Part shown: positions 1,051-58,202 of the stretch, piece by piece
Layout: each line of letters begins with the position of its first letter
Numbering within the stretch: the stretch's first letter is position 1
Assembly: GCA_043825735.1 (NCBI GenBank)
Contig: JBDRRP010000015.1
Span: forward strand, 1-64,000
Direction of reading: 5' to 3'
DNA: 64,000 nt
From: Pseudomonadota bacterium
GTDB lineage: Bacteria > Desulfobacterota > Desulfobacteria > Desulfobacterales > JBDRRP01
Translations under genes and position numbers: made by a program
Notes under the pieces: model-generated
Databases searched by the model: none
Seen by the model: the letters and a program-made list of their open reading frames with translations, nothing else
Told to the model about the DNA's origin: nothing

Positions 1051-1086
1051 GGGCATTAGGCGTTATTTGGTGCTCTTGCGCCCGGC

Positions 1087-1136
1087 ATCCGCGTCATCTG
1101 CGTTGCTGTTTAAGCCTTATAGGCGCAATCCGCGGC
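1087..1136. repeat. ATCYGCG tandem repeat interrupted by a 24-nt micro-insert (1103-1126)
   Basis: atccgcgtc atctgcg [ttgctgtttaagccttataggcgc] aatccgcggc. Confidence 0.7.
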
Positions 1137-27742: not shown

Positions 27743-27772
27743 GTTTAAAGCCTGTGATGATACAAGTGCAAA

Positions 27773-28332
27773 AGGATTCAAGGATTCGAGGGGTCAAGGG
27801 TTCAAGTGAACACCTAAGAGCAACTCCAGCTTTCGCGGGTACCGGTCAGAATTGACTTACCTCTTGTTTTCAAGAGATTGGATTAATGCTTTGAGCATCC
27901 TTTCGACCTCCGCTAACGCATCTTTGCTGCCGGTCGAACTGTTTTCATCGATAAAGCCCAGATCGCCGGATAACATTAGCTGGGTTTCCAGCTCACACAG
28001 AGATCCATAGGCAATGTAAAGAGATCGGACGTAATCGGCTGTTGTCCGTCGCCCATAGCCTTCAGCAATGTTGGAAGGAATTGACACGGCAGATCTCCTG
28101 ATCTGCGAGGTCAAACCGTATTGTTCTTCCTTAGGAAAAGTCGCAGTTACTTTGTACACGGACACACAAAAGTCATAGGATTTCTGCCAGACTTTGAGTT
28201 CTTTGTAATTCTTAAGCATTTCCGTATCTCCCCAGATTCCTTATACCTTATCGCTTTTATCTTTTGCCCTTCCCCTTGAATCCTCGAATCCTTGTCGCTG
28301 TTAAGCCGTATAGGCGCAATCCTCGAATCCTT
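27773..28332 (-). mobile_element. Four-helix-bundle gene cassette bracketed by inverted octamer repeat arms
   Basis: Left arm aggattca aggattcg aggggtca agggttca agtgaa (27773-27810); right arm ttgaatcc tcgaatcc ttg[insert]aatcc tcgaatcc (28276-28330); interrupts the mlaE-mlaF junction. Confidence 0.65.
27857..28219 (-). CDS. Four helix bundle protein (23S rRNA IVP / bAvd-like family)
   Basis: YKELKVWQKS, FPKEEQYGLTSQIRRSAVSIPSNIAEG, IAYGSLCELETQL; lower GC than its neighbours. Confidence 0.95.
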   Translation of the reverse strand: MLKNYKELKVWQKSYDFCVSVYKVTATFPKEEQYGLTSQIRRSAVSIPSNIAEGYGRRTTADYVRSLYIAYGSLCELETQLMLSGDLGFIDENSSTGSKDALAEVERMLKALIQSLENKR

Positions 28333-34037: not shown

Positions 34038-34193
34038 ATCGAAATCGGGATCGCTATCGAAATCGAAACGCCATTGGACGGAAAAAGGCCAAGTTAACAC
34101 TTTCCGAGTCTCGTCAGGCACCCTAAAATTGCCTCACGAAACGGCCAGCGGCCGGACTGTAGAAATCGATTTCGATATCGATTTCGATCCCGA
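34038..34193. repeat. Inverted hexamer repeat arms (ATCGAA/ATCGGG vs TTCGAT/TCCCGA)
   Basis: atcgaaatcgggatcgctatcgaaatcgaa ... atcgatttcgatatcgatttcgatcccga. Confidence 0.8.
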
Positions 34194-37790: not shown

Positions 37791-37847
37791 CGATTCGTCC
37801 GTAATGGATGGATTTTGTTTATGGAATGATTGTGTCCCATCGGAGCA

Positions 37848-38062
37848 AGGGTTCAAGGGTCCAAGGGGTCGAGGGGTCGAGGGTAAAAACCGCAACGGCT
37901 AAAAACCCTTGCAGTGGGACAGCCTTCTGTCGTTAAGTGGTAAAAAGGGCGATGGCTTCGAATAGCTGGACCGACTGCAAGGAATATTTCGCGGTGTTGT
38001 TTCACTTGGCACCTTGGCCCCTCGAACCCTTGTCGCTGTTAAGCCGTATAGGCGCAACCCTT
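37848..38062. repeat. Gene-less octamer inverted-arm element with 23-nt micro-insert (38033-38055)
   Basis: agggttca agggtcca aggggtcg aggggtcg ... cacttggcaccttggcccctcgaacccttg[insert]aaccc; internal ccttgcagt/actgcaagg stem. Confidence 0.8.
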
Positions 38063-38137
38063 TGCCTCAAGTGCATAAACCGGTTCCAGAGGCATTGGTC
38101 ATCGGTCTCTATCACTCGACATCAAAAGGACCTCACC

Positions 38138-40983: not shown

Positions 40984-41165
40984 TGCAACACCAAACACCA
41001 ATTCTCGCGCCAAGACGCCAAGAGCGCAAAGAACTGCGTTTAGTTTACAACCCCAAATTTCAACGTCCTGATTTATCATCAGATTCCGCCGTCGTTTCGG
41101 TTGTTAAATTTTTATCTGGTTTTCTTGGCGATCTTGGCGTCTTTGCGTGAGATATTTGGTGTTGC
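40984..41165. repeat. Long inverted-repeat element with 9-mer triple arms between convergent genes
   Basis: gcaacaccaaa..ctcgcgccaagacgccaagagcgcaaagaa / ttcttggcgatcttggcgtctttgcgtgag..tttggtgttgc. Confidence 0.85.
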
Positions 41166-43022: not shown

Positions 43023-43103
43023 ATCGAAATCGATACCGGTATCGCTATCGGTATCGACCGCGGAAGACATCCATTTGGATCCCGATTTCGATCCCGACCC
43101 CGA
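43023..43103. repeat. Inverted hexamer repeat arms
   Basis: atcgaaatcgataccggtatcgctatcggtatcga / gatcccgatttcgatcccgaccccga; same family as 34038-34193. Confidence 0.8.
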
Positions 43104-57992: not shown

Positions 57993-58202
57993 AACCACGA
58001 AACACACGAAATACACGAAAATAAAACAATTGATCTCGTGGTTTTTATTCTTTAGTTTTAATATGTTGCTCTGTTGCGGCAGCTGCAGGCAAGGCGCGCT
58101 CACTTTGGGCTGCGGCGACGCTTCATAGAAACGGCAGCAATCTTACTTGGGTATTGTGTATAACCGGATTGTTTTTTCGTGTGTTTCGTGTGCTCCATGG
58201 TT
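57993..58202. repeat. Inverted 9-mer triple-repeat arms between convergent genes
   Basis: aaccacgaaacacacgaaatacacgaaa / ttttcgtgtgtttcgtgtgctccatggtt. Confidence 0.8.

Follow-up and report, generated by a model that had tools for sequence, protein, structure and literature searches.

Small dispersed repeats (SDRs) are units of about 20–27 nt that are embedded in short tandem repeats, with heptamers as hosts. Some nest in their own copies, and the secondary structure of SDR4-6 is backed by compensatory changes. Those of the Nostocaceae, SDR1-8, were reportedly described by Elhai et al. in 2008 (Genome Res 18:1484). According to three papers, SDRs are about 20 bp long and might be mobile (PMC2884548), SDR5 is inserted precisely inside HIP1 (PMC4390886), and no SDR-like repeat is recorded outside the Nostocaceae among HIP1-rich cyanobacteria (PMC5861425). 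REP and REPIN sequences are short, extragenic, non-autonomous and hairpin-bearing, and one study puts forward the proposal that a Y1 enzyme (RAYT) acts on them in trans, with no target duplication (PMC3116915).

Here, we describe a 23-nt micro-element with three copies in a 64,000-nt stretch of DNA (the window, meaning the whole stretch analysed). Copy 1 (28295..28317, + strand) has an 8-nt 5' part followed by the core AAGCC-GTATA-GGCGC and breaks an arm of YYGAATCC octamers (28272..28330, +), the 5' arm of a four-helix-bundle cassette. The cassette gene (27857..28219, −) encodes a four-helix-bundle / 23S rRNA IVS protein (TIGR02436, E 9e-40; PF05635) and sits between mlaE-like and mlaF-like genes, in an mlaE-mlaF-like operon. 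It is bracketed by the array at 28272-28330 and a complementary, empty octamer array at 27772-27809 (+), which pairs with the former in the predicted RNA fold. Copy 2 (38033..38055, +) lies in a gene-less arm pair, within an arm of YYGAACCC-type units (38002..38063, +) whose partner (37846..37884, +) is empty. Copy 3 is a variant (1103..1126, +) in a nonamer arm of MATCYGYG-N units (1086..1134, +); it measures 24 nt as drawn and 23 nt net (1104-1126) if its first T is the host's.

All three copies were re-found where the first-pass annotation had placed them, with the same 23-mer at 28295-28317 and at 38033-38055 and a 24-nt variant at 1103-1126. Rechecking the sequence also bore out its statements that the octamers of the first two sites are back in register once the insert is removed, that target duplication is absent and that each copy in the window contains GCC-N5-GGC. 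Exact 21-mer matches in the window number two, against 0.01 expected from shuffling. Long stems are predicted by RNA folding in both octamer arm pairs (z −3.7 for the copy 1 cassette, −3.45 for the copy 2 pair), and in the copy 2 pair the micro-element is a side branch on the long predicted arm duplex. Rfam returned no matches at gathering score across the window.

A genome-wide search for the motif, which had been suggested as a check, was carried out on the 6.8-Mb draft genome to which the window belongs (G000). We found 13 exact copies, 48 within three edits and 57 by a looser pattern; five further copies are degenerate or 5'-truncated, and the total is about 60. All 56 mapped copies are intergenic as judged with a simple gene caller. 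They all point the same way with respect to the host repeat and either way with respect to the flanking genes (20 copies opposite/opposite, 15 same/same, 14 mixed and 7 at contig ends). The hosts are three unrelated arm families: YYGAACCC octamers (25 copies), AATCYGYG nonamers or decamers (23, two of them assigned by default) and AATYCCTG octamers (8). Array patterns in G000 define 265 arms of these families, and 38 of them have the element nearby on the same strand; seven other families are more abundant (1,083 arms), and none of their arms has it. Copies are found almost exclusively in arms, even though the genome contains the word AAYCY 43,408 times.

G000 holds more than 1,000 tandem-repeat arms, mostly with no gene between them. 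Other arm families with 6-9-nt units crowd the intergenic gaps of the window, for example at 2605, 4393, 16768, 18378, 34038-34188, 41007-41148, 43029-43097, 45252 and 57996-58192. Copies of the element are clustered in two regions of G000, with seven to eight on contig C25 and six to seven on C151. At C25:74800-76200, filled arms lie on either side of a small module of two genes, which resemble an antitoxin and a PIN toxin by reading of the sequence (no profile scan). Mini-hairpins of the form GGCCGNAGGCC, of which G000 has 207 (e.g., 1230-1240 in the window), lie beside nonamer and AATYCCTG arms; near these arms they share the element's strand 77 to 1, and they are possibly a second module of 11-14 nt. 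A double-hairpin repeat of about 30 nt, with about 25 copies as counted by 16-mers, is often found ahead of the same arms, as on C25 near 34990 and on C113 near 8460.

The micro-element resembles the SDRs, as these are described, in its size, its dispersal, its precise site inside a short repeat and its non-coding nature. It differs from them in that its carriers are Desulfobacterales-type organisms, of a different phylum from the Nostocaceae, and in that the repeats it enters come as complementary arm pairs around four-helix-bundle genes; it also has a single 3-bp hairpin without compensatory changes. Self-nested copies are absent among those listed, the nearest case being an internal 8-nt duplication in another genome, G797. 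Unlike REPINs, it occurs mostly as singlets (few arm pairs have both arms filled), has a weak hairpin and is nested in tandem-repeat arms, and no RAYT gene recurs beside its copies as in REP/RAYT systems. It is non-autonomous, dispersed and intergenic like MITEs of the Correia type, but lacks terminal inverted repeats and target duplication. Its length is a quarter of the usual MITE minimum. The likeness to ORF-bearing intervening sequences (IVSs; four-helix-bundle / S23 proteins, PF05635, TIGR02436, Avd-related) concerns the host arms and not the element. Unlike rRNA IVSs, these arms are tandem repeats in mRNA spacers and mostly gene-less, and the element is a second-level passenger within them. 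A literature search of main texts, with most subscription papers outside its scope, returned no description of the element or of SDR-like inserts in Desulfobacterota.

Insertion follows a simple junction rule. The 23-nt insert enters octamer hosts at G^AA; the common G^AA junction initially proposed for all three window copies thus applies to both octamer sites and not to the site at 1103, where T^AA is most likely. Copy 3 does lie in a different repeat family, as had been noted, although this host is a 9-nt repeat and the insert is likely 23 nt net instead of 24. More generally, the insert is usually drawn as 24 nt in nonamer hosts. The net gain there is mostly 23 nt at T^AA, since the junction base is T in 119 of 159 nonamer junctions across G000 and one extra base appears at the junction in all six nonamer or decamer sites with an empty paralogue. 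Other lineages have exact insertions of 24 nt (G^AA) and 26 nt (A^AA) relative to empty sites. In a search that set no condition on the flanks, 45 of 48 copies are followed by AA, and the background frequency of AA at that place is 223 in 549 octamer units. In general, the element enters 5' of AA(Y)C (N^AA), with or without a preceding G. Junctions carry no target duplication, with one base of ambiguity in nonamer hosts.

Comparison of filled and empty sites reveals how the element comes and goes. Under strict thresholds, 13 of 56 filled sites in G000 have empty paralogues, the best of which match at 38/40 + 29/30 and 39/40 + 30/30 flank bases. Related organisms provide four orthologous pairs in which one site has exactly 23 nt more than the other, and the filled site is not always in the same organism. 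The window arm filled at 38033 has an empty orthologue in the relative G001 that lacks exactly these 23 nt and has the same number of repeat units. Equal unit counts indicate gain, since a slippage deletion would take the insert and one unit. Conversely, a site on G001:C1 is filled and its counterpart on G000:C45 is empty, again by exactly 23 nt. One arm pair is filled on the left and empty on the right in G000:C50 and shows the reverse at metagenome locus L169, with a collinear spacer; the empty right arm in this comparison reads AC, not AA. All four clearly orthologous arms differ in filled state between related organisms. Further orthologue checks gave no pair (G000:C155, where the arm is absent in G001; C25:90299 against G002; L193 against C136), and L177 has the core in a gap similar to one on C25 but in a different host arm. 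The organism is covered by a single sequencing run, which may be the source and in which the site is filled; no RNA data set with the sequence was listed, which has no bearing on expression.

The first-pass annotation had also reasoned that its reading would fall if every copy shared the same long flanks and no empty alleles existed. Neither held: tabulated as it had advised, the flanks of the 56 mapped copies are diverse, giving 51 clusters when both flanks must match and 24 when either may (the largest of the latter with 20 members), and orthologous empty sites occur in both directions. The copies could instead be passengers co-duplicated inside larger mobile arms, with empty sites arising by deletion, and four small clusters that share long flanks on both sides agree with this. 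The 51 both-flank clusters, the several unrelated hosts and the equal unit count at the 38033 orthologue make it extremely improbable, and the exact orthologous filled/empty pairs rule out co-duplication as the sole cause. The element is gained and lost as an exact unit, in one orientation and only in arm families that carry AA(Y)C. Taking all mobile readings jointly, we regard it as very probably real and mobile.

Several loci show rearrangements that involve the element. At G000 C32:25843-26070, a single rare variant occupies both arms of an inverted pair, a hint of arm-to-arm copying. The element lies at junctions between two arm families or at deletion joints at L303 and L328 (G797) and at G000 C4:12264 and C96:11879, which suggests recombination at or through the element. 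At L309:820-890, its 3' half and the target flank are inverted just upstream, in a template-switch-like arrangement.

Exact matches among 41 relatives are confined to G000 and G001. A 17-mer with one mismatch is matched in 25 of 401 genomes of the class, and among the matches listed from this search arm-type contexts occur only in G001, G167, G271 and G326. Among 100 matches listed from species-representative genomes, at least 17 are family members by reading, from at least eight assemblies; among these, the assemblies are titled Desulfobacterales, Desulfobacter, Delta 4 endosymbiont or 'Proteobacteria'. Metagenomes contributed 45 loci, 44 of them family-like, with loci retrieved twice merged by sequence before counting. 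Viral contigs and phage and plasmid collections gave no match; carriage by phages or plasmids is thus not supported. Pattern searches returned 22 matches in G167 and 43 in G797 (against 2 in the control), most of the latter in a fourth host, a heptamer. Relatives in other Desulfobacterales-type genomes are 23-26 nt long, and there is also a 32-nt form. The 5' part varies by lineage, from 8 to 11 nt, and the 3' core is constant. The 32-nt form has an internal 8-nt duplication of the core start and is seen at L252, L299, L301, L303, L330 and L334 (G797).

For an estimate of conservation free of bias from the element consensus, G797 was searched by host words only (34 matches, 4 in the control). 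This returned 23 family inserts, 21 of them distinct and all exactly 24 nt. Deviation from consensus was 5/138 in the stem (3.6%), 2/46 in the AA and 1/46 in the terminal GC. Within the loop it was 1/23 at the first G, 5/23 at the last base and 23/69 (33%) in the middle, and in the 5' part it was 44/207. What is held is the length and the 15-nt 3' core, AAGCC-G-NNN-A/C-GGCGC, and what drifts is the loop middle and the 5' part. This pattern is typical of a replicator that has many active sources and a requirement in cis.

These data bear on a passive mode of spread, in which ordinary gene conversion and slippage among similar arms would move the insert with no demand on its sequence. Coupling of element subtypes to hosts, the shared rare variant in both arms at C32 and chimeric junctions between arm families at the element are all compatible with such exchange. 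It predicts, however, even drift and changes in T-run length, whereas we observe a 3.6% deviation in the stem against 33% in the loop middle and a fixed length of 24 nt in G797. It also leaves unexplained the AA rule and the entry into four unrelated host families, and we judge it very unlikely.

The mini-hairpin noted at first is present as GCC-N5-GGC. In the covariation check proposed for it, none of the stem pairs changed in a compensatory way across 137 cores, which came in three sets, two of them gathered with consensus-biased patterns. In the same cores, with the same bias, the closing pair is G.A in 118, G-C in 14 and another in 5. Folded in isolation, the element hairpin is no better than shuffles (z −0.2 to −0.7). 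The conservation pattern fits a mini-hairpin without proving it, and what is recognised in the core may be its sequence instead of a structure.

Three ideas about the origin or role of the core were tried and rejected. The first, that the element is a captured piece of the CGCAAAG arm family, arose from four look-alikes with two units that are core-like (L256, L270, L312 and L318) and was unsupported by an unbiased profile test in G000, where 7 and 32 of 60 shuffled profiles performed equally well. Secondly, GCC-N5-GGC was considered as a restriction site; it shows no marked avoidance (7,720 occurrences against 8,660 for the codon-equivalent spacing). Thirdly, a derivation from group II intron domain V was considered, and the one intron domain found has only a short word in common with the element.

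The element might alternatively be a functional tag kept by host selection, either a putative protein site (GCCG-N3-(A/C)GGC is near-palindromic) or an RNA-processing bulge in paired arms. A conserved core with free spacer positions would suit such a role, as would the intergenic location of all mapped copies and the predicted side branch on the arm duplex. But the filled state is not shared between related organisms at any of the four clearly orthologous arms, copies lie in either orientation to transcription, and the element is absent from nearly all of the 400 class genomes searched. The protein-binding tag that the first-pass annotation had offered as an alternative is weakened by this fast turnover at orthologous sites and free orientation, and we find a tag of either kind quite unlikely.

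We then considered candidate movers. G000 encodes three group II intron reverse transcriptases, which would be candidates for mobilisation of the DGR kind or by a group II intron in trans, and has five PF05635, seven GxxExxY-type and eight Y1_Tnp matches. In nine other carriers, RVT_1 was found in five, PF05635 in eight and Y1_Tnp in all nine; RVT_1 was not found in G167, which is 96% complete and has 22 pattern matches to the element. No nuclease-like or transposase-like ORF (among ORFs of 45-230 aa) recurs within 250 nt of 173 distinct copies, whose only recurring neighbours are a four-helix-bundle protein and a winged-helix protein, by reading of the sequence, at three loci. The Y1_Tnp positions in G000 are kilobases away from the mapped copies. 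With skew inferred on a draft genome, replication-strand bias is absent: 27 of 61 copies are on the G-rich strand, compared with 118 of 214 empty arms, and plain skew gives 20 of 53.

A dedicated nuclease or recombinase acting in trans, such as a Y1 (HUH) transposase of the IS200/IS605-RAYT type, could bind the hairpin, cut at fixed distances and paste the bare element at AA(Y)C. No flank pairing would be involved, and coupling to hosts would come from bursts and arm duplication. Such an enzyme would account for the lack of target duplication, the single orientation, the constant length in G797 and insertions with a non-repeat 5' flank, and Y1_Tnp is present in G000 and in 9/9 element-bearing genomes searched; it is also present in 6 of 14 control genomes. 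Transposition of the IS200/IS605 type proceeds through single strands and is biased to the lagging-strand template, whereas the element has no replication-strand bias (27/61). Its copies are almost only in arms despite 43,408 occurrences of AA(Y)C(Y) in the genome, no nuclease gene recurs beside the 173 copies, and the 5' end varies in sequence and length among lineages. Overall, we consider an enzyme of this sort unlikely to be the mover.

Instead, we lean towards a non-autonomous, SDR-like micro-element that spreads by flank-guided, core-dependent copy-in between repeat arms. The G-type subtype accounts for 25 of 25 copies in YYGAACCC hosts and 5 of 31 elsewhere, and a GTGTA loop occurs in 12 of 23 nonamer copies and none of 33 others, the copies not being independent in either comparison. 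From this coupling we infer donors that bring flank with them and pair with their target, because a bare enzyme-pasted element should not remember its host. Arm duplication with the element inside can partly produce the same coupling. The first-pass annotation had envisaged an independently mobile, very small element that targets arms; mobility and arm targeting hold up, and full independence does not, given that subtype is coupled to host family.

Under the copy-in reading, the element would be copied into the pyrimidine-rich strand of tandem-repeat arms, the target being DNA and not mRNA. A short donor strand, made up of the element and a few flanking repeat bases, would pair with another arm, easily within an arm family and rarely across families through the common AA(Y)C word. 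The element would then be looped out as a small hairpin closed by G.A or G-C, and synthesis or repair would fix it in place. While the donor is made or integrated, the conserved core may be recognised by a factor in trans, which is probably the machinery responsible for building and moving the arms. Neither a donor molecule nor an enzyme was found in these searches, and the flank next to filled sites is diverse, with no sign of co-converted flank. The comparison of L167 with L282/L283 gives an insertion without a repeat unit on its 5' side, and 5'-non-repeat insertions of this type are not predicted by two-sided pairing. A broader proposal is doubtful but worth stating: a flank-guided homing pathway of arm / four-helix-bundle (Avd-like) cassettes would write scarless hairpin modules of 20-30 nt at a two-base-defined site, its machinery would also have produced the cyanobacterial SDRs and comparable inserts of other phyla, and the enzyme would be no known transposase or reverse transcriptase.

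The micro-element is among the smallest mobile DNA units known, and it represents SDR-like behaviour in a new phylum. Its natural variation maps the cis-requirements: a 15-nt 3' core, a free loop middle and 5' part, a lineage-fixed length, N^AA(Y)C and one strand. It ties to repeat-bracketed four-helix-bundle cassettes. The mechanism by which elements of 20-30 nt move becomes testable with short oligos, and the enzyme, if found, would be a scarless writer of small inserts.
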